Shown: piece after piece, positions 7,866 through 63,991 of the stretch
How positions within the stretch are numbered: position 1 is the first letter of the stretch
Layout: every line of letters begins with the position of its first letter
Source of the DNA: an uncultured Bacillota bacterium
GTDB lineage: Bacteria; Bacillota; Clostridia; Christensenellales; UBA1242
Assembly (NCBI GenBank): GCA_938034555.1
Contig: CALHLT010000015.1
Location: forward strand, 4,786 to 68,785
Direction: 5' to 3'
DNA: 64,000 nucleotides
Position numbers and translations under genes: made by a program
Notes under the pieces: model-generated
What the model was told of the DNA's origin: nothing
Database searches by the model: none
Seen by the model: the letters and a program-made list of their open reading frames with translations, nothing else

Positions 7866-10800
7866 ATGGAAAGGAAAAAGATTGAGGAACAAGAAAGAGT
7901 TTTAGACCTTGACGGCGAAAGCGCAATTGTTTCGGCTTCGGCGGGAAGCGGAAAAACAACTGTTATGATTGAAAAAGTTCTTAAATATCTTATGCAAGGC
8001 GTTAAAGTTAAAAATATATTAGCGCTTACTTTCACCAATCAAGCCGCGGCGCAAATGAAACAAAGGCTTCTTTCGAAACTTGGCGAACTTGTTGAAAAAA
8101 CGGGGCGCGTTGAATTTGCAAACGAAATTGATTCTGTTTTGGAAGCGGACATTTCAACTTTCCACTCTTTCTATGAAAAAATTGTTAAAAAATATTTTTA
8201 CATAGTTGGAATTCAACCTGAATTCGAAATCCTTTCAAATGAAAAATTGCTTTCTCTTAAAGACGAAGCGTTTTTAGAGGCTGCTCAAAAACTTAAAAAA
8301 GAGTCTTTTGAAAAATATTTGGAACTTTGCGATGTTCTTGGGAAAAAGAGAAGCGACAGGGCAATTAAAGAGAGAATTTTTAAAATTGATAATTTTCTTT
8401 CTTCGCAATATCAACCCAAAGTTTGGCTTGAAAAAGTTTCAAGAAGTTTGTATGAAAACAAAGATGAAACCCTTTCAACATTTTTTGGCGAAATTAAAAA
8501 CAATGTTTCATATTTTAAAAATAAACTTAATTTGCTTTTGGAAAAGGCAAACATTTTTGATGAAAAAGAGCTTTGCAAGCACATTAACTTATGCAACTTA
8601 AAAATTGACGAACTCTTAAATTGCAAGAATGAAAACTTGTTAGAATTTGTTTCGGGCGAGTTTTCTCTTCCAAAACTTTTGAAATCGCAAGTTTCAGAAA
8701 CTCAAACTTTCCAAGATGTTAAAGAGACAAAAGAAGAATTTGGCGACTATATTAAAAAGATTAAAGCGTTTGATTTTGGAACATATGACAACATTGTTTC
8801 GTCGTTTGAAAGTTGCAAGGAAAACATAACTTCGCTTGTTAATTTATATTGCGACTATAAAAATCTTTTGGACGAGAAAAAAAGAGAACTTGGGGCGTTT
8901 GATTTTTCCGACCTTGAAACTTTTTGCGCAAAGATTTTGGAAAACGACGAAATTTGCAATGAAATTAAAAACGGTTATGAGCAAATTTTTGTTGACGAAT
9001 TCCAAGATATTAACCCAATGCAATATGCAATTTTAAAAAAGATTTCAAAAAACAACAATGTTCTTTTTGTTGGCGATGCAAAGCAAAGTATTTATGCGTT
9101 TAGACAATCGGACGTTGAAATTTTTGTTGACATTTGCAAGGAATTTGAAACGGCAAAGGAAAAGCAATCGCTTCCGCTTAACTGTAATTTCAGAACAAAC
9201 AAAGAAATTCTTGATTTTGATAACGATGTTTTCAAAGTTTTGATGACCGAAAAAAGTTGCGGAATTAACTATGAAAAAAACGCAATGTTTAAAGGGGAAA
9301 GCGATAACTCTTGCGAAGGGAGCAGCGTTAAGATTGTTAAAGTTTTGAAAGAGGAAAAAGAAAAAGAAGAAGCGCCAAGCGAGGTTTTTAAAGTTCTTAA
9401 TTCAAAAAGAAATTTTAAGAATTACAGTTTGGAATCAAAGGCAATTTTGAAAGAAGTTAATAATGTAATAAATGAAAGAATTGTTTTAGATGGGGAAGAG
9501 AAAAAAGTTAATTTTGGCGATATTTCAATTTTGGTTAAAAATCGTTCGAATTTACTTGTTGATTTAGTTTCGCTTTTTCTTGAAAATAATGTTCCGTTCA
9601 TTGTTAACGATGAGTTCGACCTTCTTTCTTCGAAGGAAGTTTGTTTGGTTATTTCAATTTTAAAACTTTGTCTTAATCGAAACGATGATTTCGCGTTGGC
9701 GGCGGTAATGGCTTCCCATTTTGGTATGTTTTCGTTTGACGAGCTTGCAAAAATTAAACTTTTTTCAAACAAAGAATTTTTCTTTGAAAAAGTTTTGGAA
9801 TATTCAAAAGAAAATTCCAACGAAATCTCTGTTAAAATTCAAAAATTCAACTCTCTTCTTGATAGATTAAATTTTGAAATTCAAACAAACGGAGCAAGTG
9901 CGGCCCTTGAAAATCTTTTCTATGAAACAAAATTTTTTGAGTTTGTTCTTTCGCTTAAAGGCGGAAAAGAAAGAGAGGAAAGGCTTAAACAATTTTTGAA
10001 ATATACTCAGCAAAGTGGTTTTGAATTTAACCTTTTTGGATTGGTTTCATATTTAACAAGCATTTCAAATCTTAAAACTGCAAGTTTGAAAAAATGCGAC
10101 GATAACGCAGTTTTAATAACAACAATTCACGCAAGCAAGGGGCTTGAATTTCCTGTTGTTATTTTGGGCGAAACGGGAAAAGATTTAACAAAAACAAAGC
10201 CAGAAACGGACGACCTTAAAATTGACAAAAATCTTGGCTTTGCAATTGACAACTATAATAAAGCCGAAAGAAAAATTTATGATTCAATTTTTAAACAAAT
10301 TCTTTATTCGCGCGCAAAGAAAAAGGAAATTGCAGAAAATTTGCGTCTTCTTTATGTTGCGCTTACAAGAGCAAAAAATAAACTTATCATAACAGGCGAG
10401 GTTTCAAAGGGAATTGAGCCAATCACAAAATTGACAAACTTGGAGTTTATTAAGCCAACTTACCTAAATTATATACTGGGCGCACTTGCCGATTGCAAAA
10501 ATGTTAAAGCCGAAATTTGCGAAGTTTTTGAAGTTAAAAACGAGAAACGCGAGGTTGAGGCTCAAAACATTGAAATTTTGAAAAAAGCAAAAGAAAAAAT
10601 TGACTTTGTTTATGCAAATGAAAACGCAACAAAACTTGCTCTTAAAACCTCTGTTAGCGAAGTTGCGTTTGGAGAAGAAGTTCAACCATATGAAAGCGCA
10701 AATTCGCTTCCAAATAAATTTTATGTTAGCGAGCATTTAAGCGAAATTTCAACGCCAGAAGAAGGAACAATTGTTCATGAAATTTTGGAAAAAGTTGATT

Positions 10801-11329: not shown

Positions 11330-13876
11330 ATGAAGTTATTAAACGTTGATATTTTTCAAAGTATAATAAATTTCTTCGAAACAATTAAAACAAATTTTTC
11401 GCTTGAATACTTATTATACATATTCGTTGGACTTGAAGTTTTAACAATCATTGTTTTCTCAATCGTTGCGCACAATGTTTATGAAATGCGCTTAACTCGT
11501 GCGGTTGATAAAATTAATGCTTATTTATACGAAGTTCAATACATTAATGAAAGCAATTTAATTGAGTTTAACAACATGATGAAAAGGGTGCCAAAAACTT
11601 TAAGATATCATTGGCAACAATATATGCTTAACAGAGATAAAGCACCAAGCGAATACATGTCGGTTGTTAACTGCATTGACAGACCGCTTAAAAGCAGCGC
11701 GCTTTCGGCAAACATTAAAGTTGCAAAGGCTTTAAGTTATATCTATGCAATTCTTTCGTTCATCTTTGCATGCGGTTTTGCATCAAGCCAAACAGACATT
11801 GGAACAGGCGTATACATTATGATTTTTGCAATTCCAGCAATGGTTTTGCTTTTGAACTACATTTTTGTTATCGCTTTGGACATTAGAAAAGCAAGCAACA
11901 CAAGCGAACTTTATCAAACATTCCACATCTTTAACAGATTTATTGATAAAGCGGTTTCAACAATGCCAAGTTATGTTGACTTTGAAGTTTTGTTCACTGC
12001 AAAAGAAATCAAACGCGGAATTCCTGTTTTGAACGAATACATTGAAAAACGCCAACTTCAAGAACAAGAAGAAATGAAGAAAGCAAGAGAAAATGCTATT
12101 CAACATGAAGCATACAATTTTGAAGAAGCAGGCGAGAAAGGCGAACTTGTTTTGGAACGCGCAATGAAAGAAACAGAAATCTTTGTTAGCATGCGCAATC
12201 GCTTGAACACGGAAATTGACCAATTCGAAAAAGAAATTGACAGTCTTAAACGTAGTTTTGAAAACACAAGCAAAGACTATCAAAAGAAACTTCAAGCAAG
12301 CAAGGAAAACACAGAGCGTTTAAGAGAGCAACAAGAAGCAACAACTAACCGTATTGAAAGCAACTACATCAGAAAACAACAAGCAGACGAAATTAAGAAA
12401 CAACAGCAAATTGAAAAAGACCAAACAGATGCTCAACTTAAATTTAATCAATCAATTGACAACTTAACTGCTGAAATCACAAAGAGAAAAGAAGAACTTG
12501 AAGAGGGCAGACTTAACGTTGAAAAATCAATGCTTGCAGAATACAAAACTTTCTCTAACAAAATTTACGAAGAAATTCGTGAAAGTGTTAACGAACGCGT
12601 TAAAAGCGAACGTGAAGAACTTATTGGGGCAAGAGAAGAGGTTGCTCGCGAACTTGAAAAAGCAATGACCCAAATTGACACTCTTGAAATGCAAAATAAA
12701 GTTTTAGTTAATAAAGCGGCAGAACGCGAAGCATATGTTAAAGCAAGCGTTGAAAAAGAAAAACGCGAACTTCAAGAAGAACTTGTTGCTAAACAAGAAG
12801 AAATTAATGAAAAGAACAAACAAATTCAACTTATTTCCTCAAGTTATGTTGAAGAAATTGAAAAATCTAATAAAGAGGTTAAAGAAGAGCAACCTGTTGA
12901 AGAAATTAAGATTGAAGAGCCAAAAGCAGACGAATTTGGCGGGAAATATGACGACAACGGAAACTATGTCTATCCAAACGGCTCATATTACGACCCACAA
13001 GGCAACTATCACGACGAAACTGGAAAAGTTTTTGATAAAGACGGCGTTTTAATTGAAGATAACAGCAAGCCAGAAGAAGTTGAACCAAAGAAAGAAGAAG
13101 TTCAAGTTCAAAAGCCTGCTCAAGAGCCTGTTGAAGAAAAAACTGAAGAGAAACCAGAAGAGAAACCAGAAGAAAAAACTGAAGAGCAAACTTTCGAACA
13201 AGTTGAAGATTTAACTGCGTTTAATAATGAAGAACCTGTTGAAACTTCGAATGAAGAACCTTTGGAAGAAGAACCTTCTGAAAACTTGGAAGAGGCAAGC
13301 GAAGAGCAAGAAACCGAGGAAAAACCAGAAGGTAAAAGACGCGGACGCCCAAGAAAAGAGCAAACAGAAGAGCCTGTTAAACCAGCTGGAAGACGCGGAC
13401 GCCCAAGAAAAGAACAAACCGAAGAGGCGCCAAAACCAGCGGGCAAACGCGGAAGACCAAGAAAAGAAACTGAACCTCAAGAACCAGCAGAAGAACCTGC
13501 TAAAAAACGCGGACGCCCAAGAAAGGAAGAAAGCGTTGAAACAGTTGCAAGCGCAGAGCCAGCAAGAAAACGCGGACGTCCTAAAAAAGAGGAGGCTGCG
13601 CAAGAAGTGAAGGAAGAACCAGCAAAGAAACGCGGTCGTCCTAAAAAGGAAGAAAGCGAAGAGTCTGTTAAACCAGCGGGCAAGCGCGGACGCCCAAAAA
13701 AAGAGCAAACAGAAGAAGCTCCAAAGCCAGCAGGCAAACGCGGAAGACCTAAAAAAGTTAACATCGACGAAAATTTGAAACTTATTGAAGAAAGACTTAA
13801 AGAACAAAACAGACTTCTTCAAGAGCAACAAAAAGCGCTTGATAAAACAGTTAATGGGGTTAACCCAAAAAATTAG
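11330..13876 (+). CDS. polytopic membrane / coiled-coil protein with eight C-terminal AT-hook (RGRP) motifs
   Basis: N-terminal TM helices, about 300 aa of E/K/Q heptad-like sequence, an acidic PE-rich linker, then 8x [KR][KR]RGRP[RK]K. Confidence 0.8.
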   Translation: MKLLNVDIFQSIINFFETIKTNFSLEYLLYIFVGLEVLTIIVFSIVAHNVYEMRLTRAVDKINAYLYEVQYINESNLIEFNNMMKRVPKTLRYHWQQYMLNRDKAPSEYMSVVNCIDRPLKSSALSANIKVAKALSYIYAILSFIFACGFASSQTDIGTGVYIMIFAIPAMVLLLNYIFVIALDIRKASNTSELYQTFHIFNRFIDKAVSTMPSYVDFEVLFTAKEIKRGIPVLNEYIEKRQLQEQEEMKKARENAIQHEAYNFEEAGEKGELVLERAMKETEIFVSMRNRLNTEIDQFEKEIDSLKRSFENTSKDYQKKLQASKENTERLREQQEATTNRIESNYIRKQQADEIKKQQQIEKDQTDAQLKFNQSIDNLTAEITKRKEELEEGRLNVEKSMLAEYKTFSNKIYEEIRESVNERVKSEREELIGAREEVARELEKAMTQIDTLEMQNKVLVNKAAEREAYVKASVEKEKRELQEELVAKQEEINEKNKQIQLISSSYVEEIEKSNKEVKEEQPVEEIKIEEPKADEFGGKYDDNGNYVYPNGSYYDPQGNYHDETGKVFDKDGVLIEDNSKPEEVEPKKEEVQVQKPAQEPVEEKTEEKPEEKPEEKTEEQTFEQVEDLTAFNNEEPVETSNEEPLEEEPSENLEEASEEQETEEKPEGKRRGRPRKEQTEEPVKPAGRRGRPRKEQTEEAPKPAGKRGRPRKETEPQEPAEEPAKKRGRPRKEESVETVASAEPARKRGRPKKEEAAQEVKEEPAKKRGRPKKEESEESVKPAGKRGRPKKEQTEEAPKPAGKRGRPKKVNIDENLKLIEERLKEQNRLLQEQQKALDKTVNGVNPKN
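13330..13760 (+). repeat. in-frame tandem repeats encoding the AT-hook units (about 18-20 aa period)
   Basis: Repeated CCAGC(T/G)GG(A/C)A(A/G)ACGCGGA(C/A)G(C/A)CC(A/T)A(G/A)AAAAGA units encoding PAGKRGRPRKEQTEE-type peptides. Confidence 0.8.
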
Positions 13877-14937: not shown

Positions 14938-15201
14938 GTGATTGACAGAAAAGAAAAACGAAAATTTAAAAAAGATGCAAAAAGAAGAATGATTGAAATG
15001 TTTGCGTCAATTCCTTTTGGTGTTGCGTTTGCATATCTTTTCTATTGGCTCAAACTTTCTGTTGGTCTTCAATTGTTTTTAACAGTTGTTTGCTGGGGAG
15101 CGATTATTGGAATTGTTGAACTTATTTTCTTTTTAGTTAATAAGGCAGTTCAAAAACGCGAGGCTTCAAAGCCAAAACGACGCGACCCATTTGCAGACTA
15201 G
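14938..15201 (+). CDS. small two-TM membrane protein (87 aa)
   Basis: Basic N-terminus followed by two hydrophobic helices. GTG start, so the call is weak. Confidence 0.45.
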   Translation: MIDRKEKRKFKKDAKRRMIEMFASIPFGVAFAYLFYWLKLSVGLQLFLTVVCWGAIIGIVELIFFLVNKAVQKREASKPKRRDPFAD

Positions 15202-15211
15202 GAGGAAGAAA

Positions 15212-16654
15212 ATGAGCGAGAAATTTAAAACCATGCCACACAGCATTGAAGCAGAACAATCGGTTCTTGGCTCGATGCTTATTGATAATGAGGCTCCACT
15301 TACGATTTTTTCGGCGCTAACAGGCGACGATTTCTATTCCGCTGTTAACAAAAAAATTTACGAAAGAATGCAAGAACTTTACAGAGCAAATAAGCCAATT
15401 GACTTTGTTACTTTAACCGATTTGCTTGATAAAAATGGCGAACTTGAAAATGTTGGAGGAATTGAATATGTTACAACATTAACAAATGCTGTTCCTTCGG
15501 CTGCAAACTTCAAATATTATGTTGACATTGTTAAACGCGATTCGCTTTTTAGAAAACTTATTTCAAGCGGACAAAAAATTATTGAAACTGCTTATGATGC
15601 AACCGACGACAAAGCAGCGCTTAAATTTGCCGAAAAAGAAATTTTTGATATTGCAGAAAATCAAGATGTTTCGTCGCTTGAACATATTGAAGGCGCTTTA
15701 AAAGAGGTTATTGAAAAACTTAATCAAATTGCAAAAGACCCAAATTCTCTTCGTGGGCTTTCAACTGGGTTCACGGATTTGGACGCTATAACAAACGGGC
15801 TTCAAAATTCCGATCTTATTTTGCTTGCTGCTCGTCCTGGCGTTGGAAAAACCTCTCTTGCAATGAACATTGTTACAAATGCTGCGGTTGACGGAAAGAA
15901 AAATTGTGCAATTTTCTCTCTTGAAATGCCAAAAACGCAAATTGCACAAAGATCTATGTGCTCGGTTGCGGGCGTTAGCATGGAAAAGGCTCTTAAAGGA
16001 CAACTTTCTGTTGATGAATGGACAGCAATGATTAAAGCAAGCCGCAAACTTTCGGAAGCGAACATTTTCATTGATGATTCAAGTATTAACGACCCTAACG
16101 ACATACTTTCAAAGTGCAGAAGAATTAAGAGAGAGCGCGGGCTTGACCTTGTTATGATTGACTATCTTCAACTTATGAAAGCGGACAAAAACTCCAACTA
16201 TGACAACAAAGTTTTGGAAGTTGGGGAAATAACAAGAACTCTTAAAATTGCTGCAAGAGAACTTAATGTTCCAATTATCCTTCTTTCGCAACTTTCGCGT
16301 GCTGTTGAGCAAAGAAAAGGCGACCATCGACCTGTTCTTTCCGACCTTCGTGACAGCGGTTCAATTGAGCAAGATGCCGACATTGTTATGTTCATTTATA
16401 AACCAGACATGTATAACGATGTTGTTACGGAAGAGAGCGATGTTGCAGAACTTATTGTTGCAAAGCACAGAAACGGGCGCCAAGGAACAGTTAAATTGCG
16501 CTGGATTGGCGAAACAACAAGTTTTGCAGATTATAACAAAGGACAACAACTTCCTAAGCCAAAAACAGTTGTTGCGCAAACAGACGAGGAAATTAAGGCA
16601 GAGCCTGTTATTGACGAAAAGGAGCTTGAAGAAATTAAAGACTTGTTTGAATAG
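15212..16654 (+). CDS. dnaB: replicative DNA helicase DnaB
   Basis: PHSIEAEQSVLGSML N-terminal motif, Walker A ARPGVGKTSLAMN, and IDYLQLM. SD AGGAGG sits 6 nt before ATG 15212. Normal length, so no intein. Confidence 0.95.
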   Translation: MSEKFKTMPHSIEAEQSVLGSMLIDNEAPLTIFSALTGDDFYSAVNKKIYERMQELYRANKPIDFVTLTDLLDKNGELENVGGIEYVTTLTNAVPSAANFKYYVDIVKRDSLFRKLISSGQKIIETAYDATDDKAALKFAEKEIFDIAENQDVSSLEHIEGALKEVIEKLNQIAKDPNSLRGLSTGFTDLDAITNGLQNSDLILLAARPGVGKTSLAMNIVTNAAVDGKKNCAIFSLEMPKTQIAQRSMCSVAGVSMEKALKGQLSVDEWTAMIKASRKLSEANIFIDDSSINDPNDILSKCRRIKRERGLDLVMIDYLQLMKADKNSNYDNKVLEVGEITRTLKIAARELNVPIILLSQLSRAVEQRKGDHRPVLSDLRDSGSIEQDADIVMFIYKPDMYNDVVTEESDVAELIVAKHRNGRQGTVKLRWIGETTSFADYNKGQQLPKPKTVVAQTDEEIKAEPVIDEKELEEIKDLFE

Positions 16655-16693: not shown

Positions 16694-16971
16694 ATGCAAT
16701 TTTTGCCATGCGTCATTCAAAAATTGGCAAAAAAAACGCGTTGCAAAATAGTTTTTGTTATTAAAATTTTATAACAACAGCATTTGCAAAATAGGTTTGA
16801 GAAAAATTTTAAGTAGGCTTTTATATGATTTTGGGCAAAAAGCAGGTCAAAAATTGCTAAACTTGGGGCGAAAAATGGGGAAAGAAAAAGAAAAAAGTCG
16901 AATTTTGTAAAAAAATATAAAAATGATTTTGATATTTTTACAAAAATTAGTAAAATAAATGGCAGCCATTG

Positions 16972-17001
16972 TTGACAATGTTAAAGCGCGATTTTTATAA
17001 T
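16972..17001 (+). promoter_or_regulatory. sigma-A-type promoter
   Basis: TTGACA (16972-16977), 18 nt, TATAAT (16996-17001). Confidence 0.6.
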
Positions 17002-17204: not shown

Positions 17205-17774
17205 ATGGAATTAAAAATTTGGGCAAAAACAATGTTAACAGTTCAAAGACATCTTGATAGGGTTACAAGAGCCTTGGATAAAATTATTTTAAAAAAAGCT
17301 GTTTCTTCAGCATTTGTGACATCAAAAAACTTGATGGAGCAAAGCTGTGAGCGCATTAGCAAATATATAATAAATCTTTCACAATCTAAAATCAATTTAA
17401 TAAATTTAAACACAATTTGCGTTAAATCGCTTAAAGGAATTGACAAAACTTCTGCCAAAATTTTGATTTTAAAGCATATTGACGGAAAACAAAGCAGCGA
17501 AATTGCTTCGCTTTTAGGGCTTAGCAACAGAACATATTTTCGCAGGCTTAATTTGGCTTATGAAAAAATTGAAAGTTGGCTTTTGGCAAATGGTTTTTCA
17601 TCTAGTTTTTTTGAGCAAAAATATGCTTGCGAAGGCTGGATTATGGAAGTTTATAACAAAAATTTGGAGTTTTTTGAAAATCCCAAACAAAGTGAAATAT
17701 CAACAATTGATGTTAGTTTCTTGAAAGGTATTGTTTCCGCAATTTCAAAAGCGGCTCATTCGTCATATTCATAA
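17205..17774 (+). CDS. sigma-70 region-4-like HTH regulator (Xpf/phage late-regulator-like), 189 aa
   Basis: ILILKHIDGKQSSEIASLLGLSNRTYFRRLNLAYEKI resembles a sigma region 4.2 HTH. SD GGGGAG precedes ATG 17205. The upstream part of the listed ORF (from 17025) is leader. Confidence 0.6.
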   Translation: MELKIWAKTMLTVQRHLDRVTRALDKIILKKAVSSAFVTSKNLMEQSCERISKYIINLSQSKINLINLNTICVKSLKGIDKTSAKILILKHIDGKQSSEIASLLGLSNRTYFRRLNLAYEKIESWLLANGFSSSFFEQKYACEGWIMEVYNKNLEFFENPKQSEISTIDVSFLKGIVSAISKAAHSSYS

Positions 17775-18604
17775 TAATCTTGGTGGTGCATTTTCTTGCG
17801 TTTTTTTCTAGGTTTTAAGTCCGCTTCTTCCATTGCGCGCGCCGTGATTTTTGTTGGACGAAAAAGAAGATAGATTATAACGAGGCAAGGCAAGCAAACC
17901 GCAACAATAATTATTATTTGAGTTACGGAAGGAAGCGAGCCCATTGCGTCGCCGTCGGCTGGAGTTGTTGAAGCGTCAACCGTGAAATCGGGCTCATCAA
18001 TGTATTCAAGAGGTTCGGTGTTTGCTGGAATTTCGGTTAAGGAATCGCAAAAGGCGTTATAGACATAGCCAAAAGATTCTTTTCCGCTTTTAATATACTT
18101 GCAAAAAAACCATGTTGAAGTTCGATTTGTTATTGCTTCTTCGCCTTCAATTTCGCCATAAAATTTTAAACTTGTTTCAAGATAGCCAATTTGTTCAATT
18201 GTGTTTAGCCCTTGCGATTGGGTTGGGGAGGAGCGAAGTTCAATTCCGCCAGGAACAAAAACACGAAAGGTTGCGTTTGCAAAAGGCGTTTCTGGAATTC
18301 CGTTTACGCATTGAACATCTGCTTTTTTAACATAACCATAAACATCAATATATCGAGCAGAGAAGAAGAGATTGTTGTCGCATTTGTCAATTTCAATATA
18401 GTAACTTTGAGGAATTGTGAAATACACATTCGTGAAATCCTCACTTCCGCTTGTTGAGCGATATAACTTAACTGTTTTCGAGATTGCTTTTGCAAAATAT
18501 GGTTCTTCGGCGCTAACTTGGCTTATAGTTGGACATGAGAAAAAAGATAGCAAAAGCATAAGCGAAAAAACAACTAAACAAATAAGGCAATTTTTTCTTT
18601 GCAT
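17756..18604 (-). CDS. secreted/TM protein with two SH3b-like repeats (282 aa)
   Basis: Signal peptide, two about 70-aa segments with SH3b-like spacing (YVKKADV..., YVYNAFCD), a TM helix IIIIVAVCLPCLVIIYLLF, and a basic tail. Its 3' end overlaps the convergent regulator gene by 19 nt. Confidence 0.6.
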   Translation of the reverse strand: MQRKNCLICLVVFSLMLLLSFFSCPTISQVSAEEPYFAKAISKTVKLYRSTSGSEDFTNVYFTIPQSYYIEIDKCDNNLFFSARYIDVYGYVKKADVQCVNGIPETPFANATFRVFVPGGIELRSSPTQSQGLNTIEQIGYLETSLKFYGEIEGEEAITNRTSTWFFCKYIKSGKESFGYVYNAFCDSLTEIPANTEPLEYIDEPDFTVDASTTPADGDAMGSLPSVTQIIIIVAVCLPCLVIIYLLFRPTKITARAMEEADLKPRKKRKKMHHQDYYEYDE

Positions 18605-18679
18605 GCTTAAATTTTAACAATTACACTAGGAAAAAAGCGAGAAGAAAAAGGTCGATTTTTGTTGTATATGCGAGGGAAA

Positions 18680-20137
18680 ATGAAAAAACAAAAAATTTAC
18701 GAAGCTATTTATGAAATTGAAAATGAAATTGAAAAAAGAAACAAATACTGCGCGCTTGAAAAATATAACGCGGGCGAGAAAAAACACCTTAAACAACTTG
18801 AATTTCACAAGTGTTTAAAGCGAAACAGGTGGGTTTTTGGAGGAAACAGAAGCGGAAAAACCGAGTGTGGGGCGGTTGAATGTGTTTGGCTTGCAAGAGG
18901 AATTCATCCTTTTCGTCCAAACAAAAAAGATGTTTCAATTTGGGTTGTTTCGCTTTCAAAACAAGTTCAGCGAGATGTTGCACAAAGCAAAATTTTCCAT
19001 TATTTAAAGCCAGATTGGATTGAAGAAATTGTTATGGAAACAGGGAGCAAAGATTTCCCACAAAACGGATTTGTTGACTATATTCTTGTTAAAAATATTT
19101 TTGGCGGAACAAGCAAAATTGGATTTAAAAGTTGCGACCAAGGACGCGAAAAATTCCAAGGAACTTCGCTTGACTTTGTTTGGTTCGACGAAGAGCCGCC
19201 AGAGGAAATATATCGGGAATGCAAAATGCGCGTTATTGATAAAAAAGGTGAAATTTTTGGAACGATGACGCCGCTTAAAGGATTAACTTGGGTTTATAAC
19301 GAAATTTATTTAAACGAAGGCGGCGACGACGAGGTTTGGTCAATTTCAATGAACTGGGACGATAACCCATATCTTGACGAAGACGAAATTAAAAGCCTTA
19401 AATCTTGTATGAGCGAAGAAGAACTTGAAAGCAGATGCTATGGAAAATTTAAGAGTTTTGGGGGACTTGTGTATCCAGAATTTGACCCTCAAATTCATGT
19501 TGTCGAGCCGTTTGATGTTCCAAAAGAATGGTTTGATAAAATTTCAATTGACCCCGGACTTAACAATCCGCTTTCGGCGCACTGGTATGCCGTTGACTTT
19601 GACGGAAATGTTTATGTTATTGCCGAACACTATGAAGCGGGGAAAGACATAATTTATCATTCAAATTCAATTAAGCGCATATGCGAAAATTTGGGCTGGA
19701 AAACTGGGTTTGGCGGAAAAATTGAAGCAATAATCGACAGCGCGGCAACGCAAACAACCCTTGCAAGCGAAAAAAGTGTTTGTGATTTATTTTTTGAAAA
19801 TGGAATTTTGGCAAATCCGCATGTTAACAAAGACCTTTTTTCGGGAATTAACAAGGTTAAATCCTATTTAAAAAATGCGGAAGGGAAAAGCAAACTTTTC
19901 ATTTTTAAGAACTGCGAAAACTTAATTCGTGAAATTAAGGGGTATTTTTGGGGCAATGGCGATAGGCCAACAAAGAAAGATGACCACTCGCTTGACGAAC
20001 TTCGCTATTACATTATGTCGCGTCCGGAAAGCCCAAAAGTTGAAAAGAAAAAGACGGAAGTTGAAAAAGACAAGGAAAGGCTTATTCGAAAACTTGATTT
20101 TTCAAGAAAAACCTTTGGAATTAAAAAGTTCAAATAA
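18680..20137 (+). CDS. terL: phage terminase large subunit (apparently intact)
   Basis: Walker A GGNRSGKT, Walker B LDFVWFDEEP, and nuclease acidic motifs ISIDPG, IIDSAA, DDHSLDELRYY. Start chosen at ATG 18680 after GAGGG; the ORF track starts at TTG 18659. Confidence 0.9.
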   Translation: MKKQKIYEAIYEIENEIEKRNKYCALEKYNAGEKKHLKQLEFHKCLKRNRWVFGGNRSGKTECGAVECVWLARGIHPFRPNKKDVSIWVVSLSKQVQRDVAQSKIFHYLKPDWIEEIVMETGSKDFPQNGFVDYILVKNIFGGTSKIGFKSCDQGREKFQGTSLDFVWFDEEPPEEIYRECKMRVIDKKGEIFGTMTPLKGLTWVYNEIYLNEGGDDEVWSISMNWDDNPYLDEDEIKSLKSCMSEEELESRCYGKFKSFGGLVYPEFDPQIHVVEPFDVPKEWFDKISIDPGLNNPLSAHWYAVDFDGNVYVIAEHYEAGKDIIYHSNSIKRICENLGWKTGFGGKIEAIIDSAATQTTLASEKSVCDLFFENGILANPHVNKDLFSGINKVKSYLKNAEGKSKLFIFKNCENLIREIKGYFWGNGDRPTKKDDHSLDELRYYIMSRPESPKVEKKKTEVEKDKERLIRKLDFSRKTFGIKKFK

Positions 20138-20180
20138 TGGGAATAATAGAAAAGTGCTCGACAGAAAAGAAAGAATTGTT

Positions 20181-20522
20181 ATGTCATATATTTTTGTTAA
20201 CTGCGAAAATGGCGAAAAGGCAAAAACCCGTCTTTTTTCGTCGCAGGAAATTGTTGATGTTTTGGCAAAAAGAAAATATGTTGTTTCAACAAGCGAACTT
20301 AACGAAATTATGATTTCGCTTTCAAAAGAGGGGCTTATTGATTTTGTTCAAAGTGAAAGCAAAAAAGGAAGTGTTTTTTGTGTTTCGCTTAAAGAAAAGG
20401 GGCTTCTTTTTAAAAAAGACACCCAAAAAGAACGATTGCACGCTTCGTGGATTATACTTCGAACTGCGCTTTTGGCGGTTTTAAGTTTTGTTGTTGGTCT
20501 TTTGCTTAGAGCAATTTTTTGA
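20181..20522 (+). CDS. small tail-anchored protein with winged-helix-like N-domain (113 aa)
   Basis: ATG 20181 lies after the terL stop. C-terminal TM helix ALLAVLSFVVGLLLRAIF. The N-terminal part of the listed ORF (19929-20180) overlaps terL and was discarded. Confidence 0.5.
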   Translation: MSYIFVNCENGEKAKTRLFSSQEIVDVLAKRKYVVSTSELNEIMISLSKEGLIDFVQSESKKGSVFCVSLKEKGLLFKKDTQKERLHASWIILRTALLAVLSFVVGLLLRAIF

Positions 20523-36391: not shown

Positions 36392-36409
36392 AAAAGTGGC
36401 ACAAAATGC

Positions 36410-36438
36410 TTGACAATGATCTTTTGCAGAGCTATAAT
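36410..36438 (+). promoter_or_regulatory. hrcA-operon promoter
   Basis: Perfect TTGACA (36410-36415), 17 nt, TATAAT (36433-36438). Confidence 0.75.
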
Positions 36439-55700: not shown

Positions 55701-55735
55701 GTTTTGGCAGCCAATATTTACTTTTTAAATTTTAG

Positions 55736-55776
55736 CACCGTATAATTGAGAAAAAATCAATTATGCGGTGTTTTTT
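55736..55776 (+). terminator. 14-bp hairpin plus T-run at the host / phage-module boundary
   Basis: CACCGTATAATTGA-gaaaaaa-TCAATTATGCGGTG (one G-U) followed by T6, abutting ATG 55777. The 5' arm contains TATAAT. Confidence 0.7.
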
Positions 55777-56064
55777 ATGAGCAAAAGTATATCAGAAAAA
55801 GAAATTAAAAATGCGCTTTACAAAAAAGCAATTGGCTATGAAGCAAACGAAGTTGTTGAGGAATTTGTTTTGGACGAAAGCGGCGACTATAAATTAAACA
55901 AGAAAAAGGTTACGAAGAAACATATTTCGCCAGACCTTGCGGCGGTTAAACTTCTTCTTGAAAAACTTGAAAAGAAAACAGAAAAGTATGCAAATTTAAC
56001 CGATGAGCAACTTCTTCAAGAAAAGTTGCGTTTGCTTGAATTGCTTGAAAAAAACAAAAAATAA
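55777..56064 (+). CDS. terminase-small-subunit-like protein lacking an N-terminal HTH (95 aa)
   Basis: KKAIGYEANEVVEEF...KKKVTKKHISPDLAAVKLLLEKL resembles the central/C-terminal part of Firmicute phage TerS proteins, from memory. Sits immediately upstream of the portal. No SD. Confidence 0.4.
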   Translation: MSKSISEKEIKNALYKKAIGYEANEVVEEFVLDESGDYKLNKKKVTKKHISPDLAAVKLLLEKLEKKTEKYANLTDEQLLQEKLRLLELLEKNKK

Positions 56065-56163
56065 TTAAAAATTTAATGGAAATTGTTTTTTTTATCGTTA
56101 ATTAACTTAGTATTTAGCGATTTTTTTTCGCTTTATATATCAAATTTTTAAATGGAGGAAAAA

Positions 56164-58077
56164 ATGAAAAATAATTCAAACCAAACTGGCAGAGAACAAG
56201 TTTTTGAAGAGGATTTGGTTAAAGAAGTTTTGGACGATTTCAAAACAAGACAGCAAGAAAGAAAAAGTTTTGAAACGCAATGGGAACTTAACATGAATTT
56301 CCTTATGGGAAATCAATATTGCAGCATTGGCCCTTCGGGCGAGGTTGAGGAATATGACAAACAATTCTATTGGCAAGAAAGAGAAGTTTACAACCACATT
56401 GCGCCAATCATTGAATCTCGTTTGGCAAAACTTATTAACATGAAACCAACCATGACGGTTGTTCCAGCGTCGGGAGATGAGCGCGATGTTAAAACTGCAA
56501 AAATTTCCAAAAAAATTGTTAATGCTGTTTATAACAAACTTTGCGTTAGCGGTGTTATTTCGGAGGCGAACAATTGGAGCGAAGTTTGCGGAACAAGTTT
56601 TTATAAAGTAAGTTGGAACCCAGGCAAAGGAACAATTTTGAAAGATGACGAAATGGGAAAAGTTTGCAGCGGGGAAGTTGAGGTTACTGTTTGTCCACCT
56701 TTTGAAATTTATCCAGAGAGTTCAAGTTGCAGCGACATTGACAATTGTAAGTCAATCATTCATGCAAGAGCATATCACGTTGACGAAATTAAAAGCATTT
56801 GGGGCGTTGATGTTAAAGGCGAAGACATAAATGTTTTTTCGCTTGATAATGTTACAGCAATTGGCGGCTATGGCTATTTTGGAAACACAAGCAAAGTTAC
56901 AAGCGGTGTTAGAAAAAATTACGCAGTTGTTATTGAAAAATATGAGATGCCAACAGTTGAATTCCCAAACGGAAGACTTATCATTGTTGCTGGGGATAAA
57001 CTTGTTTATCTTGGAGAATTGCCATATTTTAACGGAAACGACGGCGAAAGATGTTTTCCATTCATTCGCCAAGCGTGCATTGAACAACCGGGTTGTTTTT
57101 GGGGCTCAAGCATTATTGAGCGCTTAATTCCTGTTCAACGTTCTTTTAACACTCTTAAAAACAGAAAACATGAGTTTATGAACAGACTTTCAATGGGCGT
57201 TTTGACGGTTGAGGATGGCTCAATCGATACCGAAAATTTGGAAGACGACGGGCTTAGCCCTGGCAAAGTTTTGGTCTATCGCCAAGGTGCAACGCCTCCA
57301 AGATTTATGAATTTCGACCGTGTTCCTGTTGATTTTGCAGCCGAAGAAAACATGCTTTTAAATGAGTTCACATACATAAGCGGGGTTTCCGATTTGCTTA
57401 GAAATTCACTTTCATCCTATTCAAACATGTCGGGCGTTGCGCTTCAAGTTTTGGTTGAACAAGACGACACTCGAATTTCAATAACAGCCGAAAAAATTCG
57501 CGAAGCAATTAAGACAATGGCAAAACATGTTTTGCGTTTATATCGTCAATTTGCAACCGTTCCTCGTCTTTCAAAAATTGTTGGCGACAACGGCGAAATT
57601 GAAGTTTTCTATTTTAATGCGTCCGACATATCAAGCGACGACATTGTTTTTGAAACAACAAACGAAGTTGGCGAAACAGTTGCGCAAAAACGCAGCATGG
57701 TTTTCGACCTTCTTAATGCGGGTCTTTTGCACGACGAAAACGGGAAACTTTCAAACAGAATGCGTGTTAAAGCGCTTGACCTTCTTGGCTTTGGTGTTTG
57801 GGAAAATGCGCAAGACATTAACGAACTTCACCTTAAAAAAGCGTCAAGCGAAAACCTTAAATTTTTGAAAGGTGAAACAAAAATTGAGCCTTTGGAAGTT
57901 GACGACCACGACATTCATATTTCGGAGCACACGGCTTTGATGCTTGGCAATGAATTTGCGAAAAAGGCAGAAAGAAACGAAAAACTTACTGAAATTGTTT
58001 TAAAACACATAAGAGCGCATAAACAAATGAAAGCGATGCAAGAGAGTATTGAAAATTCAAAGATAACGGAGAAATAG
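56164..58077 (+). CDS. phage portal protein
   Basis: About 637 aa. The N-terminal RQQERKSFETQWELNMNFLMGNQY pattern is typical of portals. Position before scaffold and coat fits. GGAGG lies 5 nt before ATG 56164. Confidence 0.8.
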   Translation: MKNNSNQTGREQVFEEDLVKEVLDDFKTRQQERKSFETQWELNMNFLMGNQYCSIGPSGEVEEYDKQFYWQEREVYNHIAPIIESRLAKLINMKPTMTVVPASGDERDVKTAKISKKIVNAVYNKLCVSGVISEANNWSEVCGTSFYKVSWNPGKGTILKDDEMGKVCSGEVEVTVCPPFEIYPESSSCSDIDNCKSIIHARAYHVDEIKSIWGVDVKGEDINVFSLDNVTAIGGYGYFGNTSKVTSGVRKNYAVVIEKYEMPTVEFPNGRLIIVAGDKLVYLGELPYFNGNDGERCFPFIRQACIEQPGCFWGSSIIERLIPVQRSFNTLKNRKHEFMNRLSMGVLTVEDGSIDTENLEDDGLSPGKVLVYRQGATPPRFMNFDRVPVDFAAEENMLLNEFTYISGVSDLLRNSLSSYSNMSGVALQVLVEQDDTRISITAEKIREAIKTMAKHVLRLYRQFATVPRLSKIVGDNGEIEVFYFNASDISSDDIVFETTNEVGETVAQKRSMVFDLLNAGLLHDENGKLSNRMRVKALDLLGFGVWENAQDINELHLKKASSENLKFLKGETKIEPLEVDDHDIHISEHTALMLGNEFAKKAERNEKLTEIVLKHIRAHKQMKAMQESIENSKITEK

Positions 58078-58081
58078 GATA

Positions 58082-58765
58082 ATGGAACAAGAAAAAATTT
58101 ATGGGGAACAACCAGCAGAAAGCGAGCAAGCACAAGAAGGAATTGATGAGAAAGAAGAAAATGAAAAAGACGGTGCCTCTACGTCGCAAAGCGGCTCCCA
58201 ATTTGGCAAATTCTCTTGCGCGGAAGATTTAGTTAATGCATATAACAATCTTCAAGCGGAGTTTACGAGAAAATGTCAAAAACTTAGCGAAATTCAAAAA
58301 CAAATTGCCGAAAAGGAAATTGAAGAAACTTCTTTGCAAAAAGATGAACCAGAAGAAATTTCTCCGGCGTTTGAACAAGACAACTGGCAAACAAAAGTTG
58401 CAGAGTTTTTGCAAAAAAACGATAGTGCAAAAGAATTTTCGCGCGAGATTTCAAATGAAATTTTGAAAGATAAAGACCTTCAAGCTTCGCCAGATATGCT
58501 TGAAGTTGCTTGGGCAAGGGTCCTTTCAAAAGTGTTTAAAACACCAAAACAAATGGCGCAAGAAAGTTCGTTTATGGAAGAGTTTGTCCTTTCAAACGAC
58601 GAAGTTAAAAAGCGAGTTTTGGGGTCTTATTTAAATGAGATTAGAAGCGCGCCAAATGTTATTGGAAGCAGCACTCGCGGAGGCGAAACCTTGTTTAAGA
58701 GAGTTTCAAAGCCAACATCGCTTAATGACGCAAAAGCGTTGGCGGAGAAATTATTAAAAACTTAA
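58082..58765 (+). CDS. capsid scaffolding protein (by position and composition)
   Basis: 227 aa, acidic and helical, between portal and coat. Confidence 0.55.
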   Translation: MEQEKIYGEQPAESEQAQEGIDEKEENEKDGASTSQSGSQFGKFSCAEDLVNAYNNLQAEFTRKCQKLSEIQKQIAEKEIEETSLQKDEPEEISPAFEQDNWQTKVAEFLQKNDSAKEFSREISNEILKDKDLQASPDMLEVAWARVLSKVFKTPKQMAQESSFMEEFVLSNDEVKKRVLGSYLNEIRSAPNVIGSSTRGGETLFKRVSKPTSLNDAKALAEKLLKT

Positions 58766-58872: not shown

Positions 58873-60117
58873 ATGGTTTCATTAACAAGTGCTAGCAACG
58901 CATTAAAAAATGTTTATTTAGGCGTTGTTGCAAACCAACTTAACACAAATGCAAACCCACTTCTTGGAAGAATTGAACAATCAACTTCCGATGTTTGGGG
59001 AAAGCAAATTATTAAACTTGCGCCATTTGGAATTAATGGCGGAATTGGGGCTGGAACAGAAACAGGAACTTTGCCAATTGCAGCAGAAAATCAATATGTT
59101 CAATTTGTTACAGACCTTAAAAACTTATACGGAAAAATTTCAATTTCCGATAAAGCAATGAGAGCTTCGGCAAACAGCGCAGGCGCTTTCGTTAACCTTT
59201 TAAACGCAGAAATGGAAGGGCTTGTTAAAGCAAGCAGCTTCAATTTTGGACGTATGCTTTATGGCGACGGCAGCGGCTTATTAGCAACTGTTTCAAGTTT
59301 CAGCTCTTCCGACGGAGCAATTTCTGTTGACAGCGTTCGCAACCTTATTGAAGGAATGGTTGTTGACGTTTATAACGGAACAACAAAAGTTGAAGCATCA
59401 AGCGGAAAGAGAATTAAGTTTGTTGACAGAGTTAACAAAAAATTCTATCTTGACGCAACAGCAAGTTCTTTAACTTTTGCTCAAAATTACACAATTTTTG
59501 TTCAAAATTCAAAAGGACTTGAAATAACAGGTCTTGGCGCAATTTTTGGCGAAGGAACAACTCTTTATGGGTTAACAAAATCTAACTATCCTTGGCTTTC
59601 ACCTTATAAAGATTCAACAGAAAAAGAAATTTCTGACGAAACAATTCAAGCGGGCTTGGACAGTTTGGAAGAAACAGGCGGGCTTAGCGCTAACTTCATA
59701 ACTTGCTCAAGAACTGTTAGAAAAGCATATCAAACATATTTGTCATATTTCAAGAGAAACATTGATGTTATGGATCTCGCAGGCGGATATAAAGCAATAA
59801 CATACAACGGAATTCCAGTTTTTGCAGATAGATTTGTTAAAGACGACGAAATGTATTTGCTTAACACCGACGAATTTACTTTGCATCAACTTTGCGATTG
59901 GAAATGGCTTGAAGGCGACGACGGAAAAGTTATTAAACAAAATCCAAACGAAGCAACATATTGCGCAACTCTTGTTAAATATGCCGACTTAATTTGCAAC
60001 AAACCAAACGCACAAGGAAAAATCTCTGGAATTAAATCCACTGTAACAAATCCTTTCAAGTCGACAACAATTGTTGAAACACCTTCAACAAACACAAACG
60101 CAGGCAACGGCGAATAG
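58873..60117 (+). CDS. major capsid (coat) protein
   Basis: 414 aa. Lies after the scaffold gene with a strong SD GGAGGG. The N-terminal LKNVYLGVVANQLNTNANPLL pattern resembles P22-coat-like MCPs of Firmicute phages, from memory. Confidence 0.75.
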   Translation: MVSLTSASNALKNVYLGVVANQLNTNANPLLGRIEQSTSDVWGKQIIKLAPFGINGGIGAGTETGTLPIAAENQYVQFVTDLKNLYGKISISDKAMRASANSAGAFVNLLNAEMEGLVKASSFNFGRMLYGDGSGLLATVSSFSSSDGAISVDSVRNLIEGMVVDVYNGTTKVEASSGKRIKFVDRVNKKFYLDATASSLTFAQNYTIFVQNSKGLEITGLGAIFGEGTTLYGLTKSNYPWLSPYKDSTEKEISDETIQAGLDSLEETGGLSANFITCSRTVRKAYQTYLSYFKRNIDVMDLAGGYKAITYNGIPVFADRFVKDDEMYLLNTDEFTLHQLCDWKWLEGDDGKVIKQNPNEATYCATLVKYADLICNKPNAQGKISGIKSTVTNPFKSTTIVETPSTNTNAGNGE

Positions 60118-60492: not shown

Positions 60493-61062
60493 ATGACAAT
60501 TAAAAGCATTTTGAAAACCGCTTGCATTTTTCTTCAAAAAGACGAACTTCTTTCGGTTCAAAGTCTTGACGGAACAGAAACCGAAACCGACGAGCAAACA
60601 AAAGAGTTAAGCCTTCTTCTAAGATGTCTTAATCTTGTTTTAAGCGAAATTGCAACAGACTACATTCCGCTTTTGAAAACCGAAACAGTTTCTTCAACTG
60701 ACGGGAAAATTTTGCTTTCATCTCTTTCAAAAGATGTTTTGGACATTGTTAAAGTTGAAAACAAATTTATGCTTTCCGAGCCATATAAGTTGTTCCCAGA
60801 CAGCATTGAAACAATCCCAGGCGAAGTTAAAATTACATATTCATATGAACCGGCAAAACTTGAAAGTTTAACAAGCGAAATTGAAAACTTTTCGGGCAAA
60901 TTAACCGACAGGCTTGTTGCTTATGGTGTTGCCATGGAATATTGTTTCATTTGCGGTCTTCACGACGACGCATCAATTTGGGAAAAGCGTTTTAAAGACG
61001 GTTTGTTAATTGCAGCAAGAAAAAAATCCACAATTCGTCTTCCAAAACGGAGGTGGATTTAA
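60493..61062 (+). CDS. head-tail adaptor-like protein (P22 gp4 position), 189 aa
   Basis: Assigned only by synteny and size. SD AGGAGG. Confidence 0.35.
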   Translation: MTIKSILKTACIFLQKDELLSVQSLDGTETETDEQTKELSLLLRCLNLVLSEIATDYIPLLKTETVSSTDGKILLSSLSKDVLDIVKVENKFMLSEPYKLFPDSIETIPGEVKITYSYEPAKLESLTSEIENFSGKLTDRLVAYGVAMEYCFICGLHDDASIWEKRFKDGLLIAARKKSTIRLPKRRWI

Positions 61063-62573: not shown

Positions 62574-62632
62574 ACCTTGAAAATATAAGACTTAAAAACA
62601 TTGAAAATTTCAACAATCTAGGAGGAGTTAAA

Positions 62633-63565: not shown

Positions 63566-63991
63566 ATGTGGCAAGACATTTTAAATATTGTTATTTCAAA
63601 CGGAATTTTTGCAACGCTTTTTGTGTGCCTTTTGGCATATTTGCTTAAGGACAGCGCAAAACGCGAAGATAAATACACCCAAACTATAAATTCTCTTAAC
63701 AAAAGTGTTAACGAAATTCGTCAAGCAAACGAAAAAGTTGACGAAATTAAAGAAGATGTTGGGGAGATTAAAGATTCTTCGAAAGAAAGCAAAAAAAATA
63801 TTTCTTTGGTTGCAAACGCAACAAAGGAAATCCAAGGAAAACTTGAACAAACAAGCTCCTCAATTTCGTCAATTAACGAAAACTTGAAAACGCACAGCAA
63901 ACTTATCAAAAAAGTTTCAAGAGATGTTAAGGGTGTTAAAAATGATGTTAAAGAAATTAAGAAAGTTGTTTTTCCAAAGGAGGAGTTATGA
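63566..63991 (+). CDS. BhlA/UviB-family holin-like protein with coiled-coil tail (141 aa)
   Basis: The N-terminus ILNIVISNGIFATLFVCLLAYLLKDSAKREDKY resembles the BhlA/UviB TM-plus-KxSxxRE motif. Confidence 0.55.
   Translation: MWQDILNIVISNGIFATLFVCLLAYLLKDSAKREDKYTQTINSLNKSVNEIRQANEKVDEIKEDVGEIKDSSKESKKNISLVANATKEIQGKLEQTSSSISSINENLKTHSKLIKKVSRDVKGVKNDVKEIKKVVFPKEEL

Follow-up and report, generated by a model that had tools for sequence, protein, structure and literature searches.

A large terminase encoded 35.6 kb from its probable head genes: two loci of a Christensenellales chromosome as candidate halves of one domesticated, gene transfer agent-like module

What does a large terminase package when no portal or capsid gene lies beside it? 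This question is raised by a 64,000-nucleotide stretch of DNA from an uncultured Bacillota bacterium of the Christensenellales (contig CALHLT010000015.1, positions 4,786 to 68,785; hereafter the window), a chromosome segment of ~35% GC in which neither of the two loci discussed below is a compositional island. A preliminary description made from the sequence alone had noted that the large terminase gene (terL) has no adjoining portal or capsid gene, that the sole portal and capsid genes start at 56.2 kb and have no terL, and that dnaK, typA, der, hydrogenase genes and other core genes lie between the two loci. It proposed that one TerL serves a capsid module encoded elsewhere, as in the dispersed loci of gene transfer agents (GTAs). 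Annotation of open reading frames (ORFs) and protein families reproduced this layout. The two loci are 35.6 kb apart, and in the 64-kb window there was no second terL or terL remnant, no other phage-like gene outside the two loci, and no complete second prophage, which the preliminary description had considered as a possible source of partners. We think it probable, judging from comparison of related genomes, that the two loci are the halves of one domesticated, vertically inherited, phage-derived GTA-like module of gut Clostridia, with TerL acting in trans.

We compared the window with 85 related loci (designated by L numbers), each read over ±10 kb, of which 70 were informative and 15 too short to tell. 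In 56 of the 70, terL is directly upstream of homologues of the genes at 55.8–64 kb of the window, in the same order and within 10 kb, and this finding supports the proposal of one TerL serving a capsid module encoded elsewhere. The gap between terL and the portal gene is <1.5 kb in 43 of the 49 loci where the capsid gene was also found, whereas 14 loci have no portal gene within 8–10 kb downstream of terL. The identities of TerL and portal to their window counterparts are correlated across 49 loci (Spearman 0.61, p = 3e-6). An independent distribution of the terL and capsid loci, which had been named beforehand as grounds for abandoning the link, was not seen in the loci compared. A scan of one genome per species gave at least 507 matches; the named carriers among the matches listed are Christensenella, Christensenellaceae, Ca. 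Onthoplasma, and Ca. Scatosoma.

The typical contiguous module is ~12 kb long and comprises a gene for a sigma-region-4-like protein (sig), a gene on the opposite strand for an SH3b membrane protein (mem), terL, a gene (preP) for a protein resembling the small terminase subunit (TerS), the portal, scaffold and capsid genes, genes for four or five virion proteins, and holin genes. In the contiguous locus L001, for example, gyrB, gyrA, a deacetylase gene, ssb, and an unknown gene are followed by sig, the SH3 protein gene (minus strand), terL, genes for proteins of 104 and 71 aa, the portal gene, and genes for proteins of 212, 396, 126, 186, 503, 399, and 275 aa, before the module ends with the BhlA holin and Phage_holin_1 genes. 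The 95-aa ORF that precedes the portal gene in the window is a homologue of the gene directly after terL in L001, and the break in the window is therefore exactly between terL and the TerS-like gene. The statement in the preliminary description that no small terminase lies beside terL holds for the terL locus, but the truncated TerS-like gene adjoining the portal gene had been overlooked.

In a neighbor-joining tree of TerL the window clusters with L004, L006, and L021 and with many further split loci. Sister groups of this split clade have inserts of 2.8–4.9 kb at the same terL/preP junction. There is a second split clade (L002/L013), and its sister loci have inserts of 3.3–4.1 kb. Judged from this tree, the split is old and clade-specific. 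Each half of the window has a close relative in the same chromosomal context: L004 (TerL 82% identical) has dnaB upstream and ABC ATPase, PucR, and RNase J genes downstream, and L090 (portal 84% identical) has the order dnaK ... L21-Prp-L27, OGG, NfeD, FloA, TerS-like gene, portal. The 82% TerL relative and the 84% portal relative occur together in one sample, SRR12711184. Other contexts, too, hold portal halves that lack terL: they follow rpoA-L17-RNase H in L086 and L094 and lie in a third setting in L095. The sig-mem-terL trio is kept together in every split lineage. The only repeats at the junctions that might reunite the halves by recombination were AT-rich chance matches of 10–12 nt. The terL/TerS junction was also seen to be an insertion hot spot (L007 11549..13960, L040 11647..15257, L002 11794..14277). 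These inserts carry large ORFs of 369–827 aa, which may be cargo or further particle components; the 827-aa ORF in L002 had no Pfam match.

To place the two halves beside a host gene, we compared nonsynonymous and synonymous divergence (dN/dS and dS) between the window and the L004/L090 lineage. Values for the host gene dnaB (dN/dS 0.16, dS 0.76) were close to those for terL (0.13, 0.96), portal (0.13, 0.87), and capsid (0.19, 0.51), and the TerS-like and 506-aa virion proteins had dN/dS of 0.15 and 0.16. Identities of TerL and DnaB to the window were 82% and 83% in L004, and 73% and 68% in L006. The similar dS and low dN/dS mean that both halves diverged alongside the host gene since before speciation of the L004/L090 lineage, and the constraint on both halves is like that on the replicative helicase. 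Vertical inheritance under purifying selection is thereby indicated, with congruence judged locally and not on a genome-wide species tree. Together, the correlated identities, the purifying selection on both halves at equal dS, and the old clade-specific split lend further weight to the proposal of one TerL working for a distant capsid module.

The same data bear on whether the two loci are unrelated or functionless remnants of a decaying defective prophage. The module is short, it lacks recognizable tail fibers or an endolysin, and in the window core genes spanning 35.6 kb interrupt it, all as decay might produce. We find this scarcely credible, however, as all module genes are intact with dN/dS of 0.13–0.4 despite dS of ~0.5–1 to the nearest relative compared, TerL is 63–82% identical across hundreds of species with invariant catalytic motifs, and a large clade has retained the split state. 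Neither frequent frameshifts or losses in close relatives nor dN/dS near 1 was observed.

TerL itself is intact. It matches Pfam Terminase_6N (PF03237) at 54.8 bits (cut-off 22) and phrog_2, and falls just below the cut-off for Terminase_6C (PF17289; 20.2 bits against 22.6), a domain that is precomputed in many of its homologues. The preliminary description had reported that Walker A, Walker B, and the nuclease acidic residues are kept. In an alignment of 12 sequences these are indeed invariant (Walker A GGNRSGKTECG, Walker B LDFVWFDEEPP, the coupling motif TMTP, and nuclease residues D291, D353, and D435/H436/D439), and the inactivating changes that would have spoken against the link were absent from the alignment. 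In the PDB it matched the large terminase 5oe8 (4e-9) and an entry deposited as ‘Large terminase protein’, 4dkw (6e-5). By its sequence, TerL has the Terminase_6 (T4/P22-type) architecture of an N-terminal ATPase and a C-terminal RNaseH-like nuclease with an acidic triad. More than 5000 homologues are present in the public protein collection, and the best 120 are all 67–98% identical and lie on contigs of up to 390 kb labelled Clostridia or Eubacteriales.

An intact, conserved TerL is also what would be expected if the enzyme had been co-opted in the split lineages for a host function, for example as a nuclease or ATPase acting with the regulator and the SH3b protein, while the capsid locus used another terminase or none. 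That sig, mem, and terL stay together in every split lineage and are separable from the head genes fits this idea, as does the better conservation of TerL than of portal and capsid (39–69% identical). We nevertheless regard co-option as highly improbable. The same trio is joined to head genes in most relatives, the split brings no change in TerL motifs or rate, the window has no other terL, and the TerS-like partner stays at the portal locus under purifying selection.

The gene content of the second locus is that of a podovirus-type head with lysis functions (Table 1). The portal has >5600 homologues, with an identity ladder like that of TerL. Between portal and capsid, all related loci have a gene in the scaffold position; its product in the window had no family match in Pfam, PHROG, or NCBIfam, and the 110-aa and 189-aa proteins encoded after the capsid gene had no informative match in these collections. 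The 506-aa virion protein is conserved in related loci. In L001, L086, L090, L094, and L095 the module terminates with BhlA and Phage_holin_1 genes, and by comparison with L090 the second holin gene (Phage_holin_1) is expected just past the end of the window. The TerS-like protein matches phrog_309, ‘terminase small subunit’ (E 4e-8), only over profile positions 191–246 of 319, and its homologues match phrog_309 (14 of 15) and phrog_23444 (11 of 15). With 95 aa it has no helix-turn-helix (HTH) region and no room for an N-terminal DNA-binding domain; its profile gave only noise against PDB sequences.

Among cultured phages, the portal and capsid are related almost only to Arthrobacter phages Jasmine, Brad, and Adat and Microbacterium phage Shocker, together with a few uncultured contigs. 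The same phages are among the 25 TerL matches listed, which further links the two loci. In these phages, too, two small genes separate TerL from portal, and capsid comes further on. Their identity to the module is only 23–29%, they are complete phages of ~45 kb with replication and lysis modules, and similarity to the other module proteins was not detectable. The IMG/VR records of the module are short fragments classed as ‘viral’, in which TerL is 61–67% identical. A sister tier with the same gene order follows (L109, L110, L111, L113; TerL 51–55%, portal ~40%, capsid ~39%), and phage-sized (~40 kb) contigs sharing portal and capsid are more distant (TerL 30–37%, portal and capsid 20–28%). From these identity tiers, the family is a tight, widespread cluster far from any known phage. 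The sister-tier contigs have 50–62% GC and may come from an allied domesticated element of other, high-GC Clostridia.

The IMG/VR labels raise the further possibility that the module is, or belongs to, a mobile element (a temperate phage, a satellite, or a capsid-forming island) with its other modules elsewhere or spreading horizontally, the orphan terL being the result of a recent rearrangement. Many module-carrying fragments are labelled viral there, and the chromosomal context upstream differs between clades (dnaB, groESL, or gyrA/ssb). We consider mobility very unlikely on several grounds. No integrase, replication, repressor, excision, or lysogeny gene was found within 10 kb in any locus inspected. 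TerL has diverged in step with DnaB at a dS equal to that of the host gene, the GC content of module-carrying loci follows that of the host over a range of 25–55%, and the arrangement is clade-specific. No junction repeats beyond chance matches were found, and in TerL no phage-sized relative exceeds 37% identity.

If the two loci form one module, how might they be expressed together? The gene sig, which adjoins terL in loci of divergent genomes, encodes a candidate activator. The preliminary description had called its product sigma-region-4-like, and this was borne out: the protein is just above the Pfam cut-offs for Sigma70_r4_2 (25.8 bits, cut-off 25.7) and Sigma70_ECF (24.6 bits, cut-off 21.1), and structure agrees. 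Its AlphaFold model is all-helical (predicted local distance difference test score, pLDDT, 78), and the central domain superposes on region 4 of the extracytoplasmic function (ECF) sigma factors SigL, SigD, and SigE, the best Foldseek matches, with template modelling (TM) scores normalized to the target of 0.75–0.83 and a root mean square deviation of 1.1–2 Å over 59–73 residues. The N-terminal 78 residues, modelled with lower confidence, form mainly two long helices with a short one between them. From its model we take the protein to be a sigma-4-like DNA-binding protein; dN/dS for sig is 0.16–0.34. In the window clade the protein ends in a conserved HSSYS, with YSSYS in one of 14 aligned sequences.

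Upstream of sig is a promoter with canonical hexamers (promoter scan 12/12) preceded by TGGCAG, an AGTCGAA box, and an inverted pair of TTTTGTAAAAA, which is found nowhere else in the window. Even very divergent genomes keep this region (window 16896..17001; L001–L083). We counted 26 matches to the composite TGGCA-N6-8-TTGAC-N16-19-TATAAT in 3 Mb of related loci; 19 immediately precede sig, and two precede the TerS-like gene in the split loci L094 and L095. The portal half of the window has a promoter-like site, TGGCAG-N6-TTTACT-N18-TATAAT, that is a near match to this composite. The shared promoter architecture suggests that both loci may be under common control. A 16-bp hairpin with a T-run overlaps the predicted −10 of the portal-half site and stops immediately ahead of the start codon of the TerS-like gene. 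The 84% relative, L090, keeps this hairpin (9560..9660) with one compensatory G-C to A-T change, and the hairpin probably insulates the portal half from upstream read-through. One of the five composite matches that are not 5' of a module gene is upstream of hrcA-grpE-dnaK-dnaJ in the window.

Two further repeats were enriched upstream of sig. In 45 regions of 350 nt there were 27 occurrences of TGTCGAA (13 times background; shuffles averaged 1.5, with at most 5) and 48 of TTTTGTAAAA (36 times background), counts that are not independent because the loci are related. In addition, 33 of 84 loci have a TGTC(G/A)A box at a distance of 15–60 nt before terL, where ~10% would be expected. TGTCGAA equals the Spo0A-box consensus, which we treat as a lead only; under the bolder reading given below, these Spo0A-box-like sequences and the TTTTGTAAAA repeats at the sig promoter would couple the release of particles to stationary phase or starvation. 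Two candidates were set aside. The 13-mer TTAAATTTTARCA is exact only upstream of terL and of preP, but is not counted as a co-regulation signal because its count with one mismatch equals chance; the copy at terL overlaps an apparent −10 box of the divergent SH3b gene. A sigma-54-like reading of the TGGCA element was rejected, as there is no GC at −12 and canonical −35 and −10 hexamers follow.

Table 1. Positions of genes and sequence features in the 64-kb window.
Feature	Position	Strand	Basis or remark
848-aa protein	11330..13876	+	AT-hook motifs the sole recognizable feature
dnaB	15191..16654		first gene of the terL region (15.2–20.5 kb)
AGTCGAA box	16896		upstream of sig promoter
TTTTGTAAAAA, inverted pair	16903..16913, 16935..16945		upstream of sig promoter
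TGGCAG, sig promoter	16960..16965	+	
TTGACA, −35 of sig promoter	16972..16977	+	
TATAAT, −10 of sig promoter	16996..17001	+	
Stretch between sig promoter and start codon	17008..17204		~190 nt
Sigma-region-4-like HTH protein (sig), 189 aa	17205..17774	+	candidate transcription activator of module; Pfam, AlphaFold, Foldseek
HSSYS terminus of sig	17760..17774		
SH3b membrane protein (mem), 282 aa	17756..18604	−	convergent with sig, divergent from terL; ORF map, alignment
−10-like hexamer of mem	18605..18625	−	
TTAAATTTTARCA upstream of terL	18607		
terL, Terminase_6 type, 485 aa, intact	18680..20137	+	Pfam, PHROG, motif alignment
Small tail-anchored protein	20181..20522	+	lineage-specific, outside conserved module
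DUF4417 protein, 416 aa	34516..35766	+	
Composite upstream of hrcA-grpE-dnaK-dnaJ	36397..36438		
Surface-type protein, 1469 aa	41725..46134	−	
TGGCAG, portal-half site	55705..55710	+	
TTTACT, portal-half site	55717..55722	+	
TATAAT, portal-half site	55741..55746	+	
TTAAATTTTARCA upstream of preP	55725		
Hairpin and T-run	55734..55772		
TerS-like protein (preP), 95 aa, truncated, without N-terminal DNA-binding region	55777..56064	+	phrog_309
Portal, P22-like	56152..58077	+	Pfam P22_portal 67.6 bits; phrog_156 E 2e-40
Scaffold-like protein	58082..58765	+	assigned by position and acidic/helical composition
Major capsid protein (MCP), podovirus type	58873..60117	+	NF033394 capsid_maj_Podo 263 bits (cut-off 80); phrog_14242 E 5e-55
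Virion/connector candidate, 110 aa	60146..60478	+	conserved order after capsid gene
Virion/connector candidate, 189 aa	60493..61062	+	conserved order after capsid gene
Virion structural protein, 506 aa, tail/nozzle candidate	61053..62573	+	phrog_3287 ‘virion structural protein’ E 2e-10
DUF7934 coiled-coil protein	62570..63559	+	Pfam DUF7934 121 bits; same position in L090, L095
BhlA-family holin	63566..63991	+	Pfam Holin_BhlA 52.7 bits

Is such a module a GTA? We followed the criteria for GTAs as viriforms of Kogay et al. (2022), as they are summarized in PMC12946183. In the window and in L001, L086, L090, L094, and L095, head and packaging genes derived from a caudovirus are present in a cellular genome, between flanking core genes and without replication, integration, or lysogeny genes, and dispersion of the genes was seen in the window and in related split loci. 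The module fits a GTA on the strength of its phage-derived head, packaging, and lysis set, its lack of autonomous functions, its vertical inheritance under purifying selection, and a TerS without a DNA-binding domain. GTA-like packaging of host fragments of ~4.1 kb and ~6.3 kb has been reported for the genera HGM11616 and QANA01, placed in the Christensenellaceae, with no gene cluster assigned to it (PMC12946183, section 9 and Supplementary Data 1). These host-DNA reads from virus-like particles bear indirectly on a further criterion, that a GTA carries essentially random host DNA in pieces too short for its own genes. We see in the module a strong candidate for the particles that, according to this report, carry random host DNA in these bacteria.

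In the window clade, insertions and rearrangements at the TerL/TerS junction have probably moved terL and the regulator 35.6 kb from the head-lysis block. For the working of the module we hypothesize the following course of events. A host signal would switch on both the regulator locus and the portal locus, procapsids would assemble from the products of the 56–64 kb locus, and TerL made from the gene at 18.7 kb would diffuse to them. Together with the TerS-like protein, which has no DNA-binding domain, TerL could package host DNA non-specifically by headful cutting, and the holins would release the particles.

Several points weigh against this account of one GTA-like module with TerL in trans. 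Co-occurrence of the halves was judged from loci of ±10 kb. The related capsids come from phages of ~45 kb, and a reduced head, as is typical of GTAs, would be a supposition. Neither an endolysin nor a clear receptor-binding protein was recognized in the module. No sigma-2 domain was recognizable in the sig protein, whose TM score with full-length ECF factors is ~0.3 and whose match to TIGR02937 is 21.4 (cut-off 42.9). Lastly, control of both loci by sig is not directly supported, because the portal-half promoter resembles the promoter of sig itself and not the region upstream of terL.

TerL might still serve the head module in a domesticated particle whose function is not gene transfer, such as a PBSX-like killer, a device for programmed lysis or release of extracellular DNA, or a cargo capsid. 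The evidence of conservation and selection is the same for such a particle as for a GTA-like module, the holins are conserved module parts, and the authors of PMC12946183 note that the GTA of Faecalibacterium prausnitzii (FpGTA) might act like PBSX instead of delivering DNA. Strong purifying selection on TerL, the TerS-like protein, and portal argues, however, that DNA packaging matters, a short podovirus-type tail set makes a contractile killer unlikely, and GTA-like packaging of host DNA has been seen in Christensenellales genera. On balance we regard a non-transfer function as rather unlikely, and continue to prefer a GTA-like module.

The SH3b-like gene convergent with sig, as described earlier, does overlap it by 19 nt, and SH3_3 was detected in 13 of 22 mem homologues (best E 3e-11). 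In the Mem protein a signal peptide is followed by two SH3b-like repeats, and the C-terminal part comprises a transmembrane segment and a charged tail; the gene accompanies sig and terL in most loci (dN/dS 0.25–0.32). Cell-wall binding, lysis control, and signalling are possible roles. In the window and ~10 inspected loci, a −10-like hexamer (TAAAAT/TATAAT, minus strand) lies 6–7 nt 5' of the mem start codon without a Shine-Dalgarno sequence, and a leaderless mRNA is therefore suggested. The small tail-anchored ORF next to terL also exists, though it is confined to the closest relatives: among the 85 loci only L004 has a homologue, and it had no Pfam or PHROG match. Beyond it are genes for an ABC ATPase, a PucR-type HTH protein, and RNase J. 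The stretch between the sig promoter and start codon is missing in L004 and L006 and folds into several hairpins (minimum free energy −61 kcal/mol, z = −3.3), with no Rfam match; Rfam scans of the window and the 5' region of sig gave two tRNAs only and no riboswitch or leader family.

The core genes separating the loci encode NrdR, FeoB, TypA, two tRNAs, Der, PlsY, [FeFe] hydrogenase, rubrerythrin, HrcA-GrpE-DnaK-DnaJ, a MiaB-like enzyme, HIT, L21-Prp, OGG, and NfeD-FloA. Among them were also observed the gene for the DUF4417 protein, between those for rubrerythrin and HrcA, and that for the surface-type protein, which has six DUF285 and four Listeria-Bacteroides repeats. Upstream of dnaB, the ORF of the 848-aa protein is conserved in L004, and its stretch is strongly A-over-T-skewed (AT skew 0.39–0.45).

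In the human gut, Christensenellales are heritable and associated with health, and they are hard to culture. If our reading is correct, the module names a gene set (TerL, TerS-like protein, portal, capsid, holins, and a candidate regulator) for packaging seen in fecal viromes, and extends GTAs, well established in Alphaproteobacteria, to a second large group of gut Firmicutes. Recognizing the module would also improve the annotation of ‘viral’ contigs in gut metagenomes, as IMG/VR lists its fragments as viral. The contiguous, insert-bearing, and split clades form a natural experiment in which a terminase is separable from its head genes yet kept by selection.

Three known systems invite comparison. 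PBSX of Bacillus subtilis is a defective element that packages host DNA. Its genes are contiguous, it resembles a myovirus in having a contractile tail, and the positive regulator Xpf is encoded upstream of xtmA/xtmB. Here too, in a Firmicute, a gene for a sigma-like regulator is just upstream of a terminase gene, and the preliminary description had drawn this parallel. It stands as an analogy only, because the TerL is not of the PBSX family (28.6 bits against the TIGR01547 cut-off of 105); nor was a sigma-2 domain found. The module has no tail sheath or tube genes, and its capsid is of podovirus type.

The closest likeness in organization is to FpGTA, a podovirus-like GTA with two loci 125 kb apart (PMC12946183; Nat Commun 2026;17:2046). 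Both elements are near-ubiquitous in a group of gut Clostridia, and both have an operon of ~10 kb with genes for a TerS-like protein, TerL, portal, a protein in the scaffold position, capsid, and podovirus-type proteins, a TerS without an evident DNA-binding domain, and no replication or integration genes. They differ in that the FpGTA MCP is annotated as ‘N4-gp56 family’, while that of the window matches NF033394 capsid_maj_Podo and has no N4-gp56 match (E ≤ 0.01), and in that the FpGTA TerS is immediately upstream of TerL in a ten-gene operon, while here the TerS-like gene is downstream and, in the window, 35.6 kb off. The second FpGTA locus holds baseplate, fiber, and lysis genes, whereas the break here is between TerL and TerS, and the module described here includes a sigma-r4-like regulator and an SH3b membrane protein among its conserved components. 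As the capsid annotation and TerS position differ, we place the module, by annotation, outside the FpGTA family as an element that would work like it. A literature search found no published description of this gene cluster. A bolder version of our reading, to which we would give slightly less than an even chance, is that this is an undescribed, order-wide Christensenellales GTA, domesticated apart from FpGTA (because the capsid family is different), with a terL/regulator locus uncoupled yet working in trans and a sigma-4-like activator as its switch, and that it is the source of the particles with 4–6 kb of host DNA seen for HGM11616 and QANA01 in human fecal viromes.

The alphaproteobacterial GTAs, such as RcGTA of Rhodobacter capsulatus and that of Caulobacter, are phage-derived, vertically inherited under purifying selection, and encoded in several loci controlled in trans. 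The module resembles them in vertical inheritance, purifying selection, phage origin, and dispersed loci. Their TerS lacks the DNA-binding domain (Sherlock et al. 2019, as cited in PMC12946183), as does the TerS-like protein of the module. The ancestry of these GTAs is unrelated, being that of a siphovirus-like HK97-type head-tail cluster, and their regulators are CtrA, GafA, and GafYZ. In those systems, moreover, TerL stays in the head cluster, whereas in the split loci described here TerL is the displaced gene.

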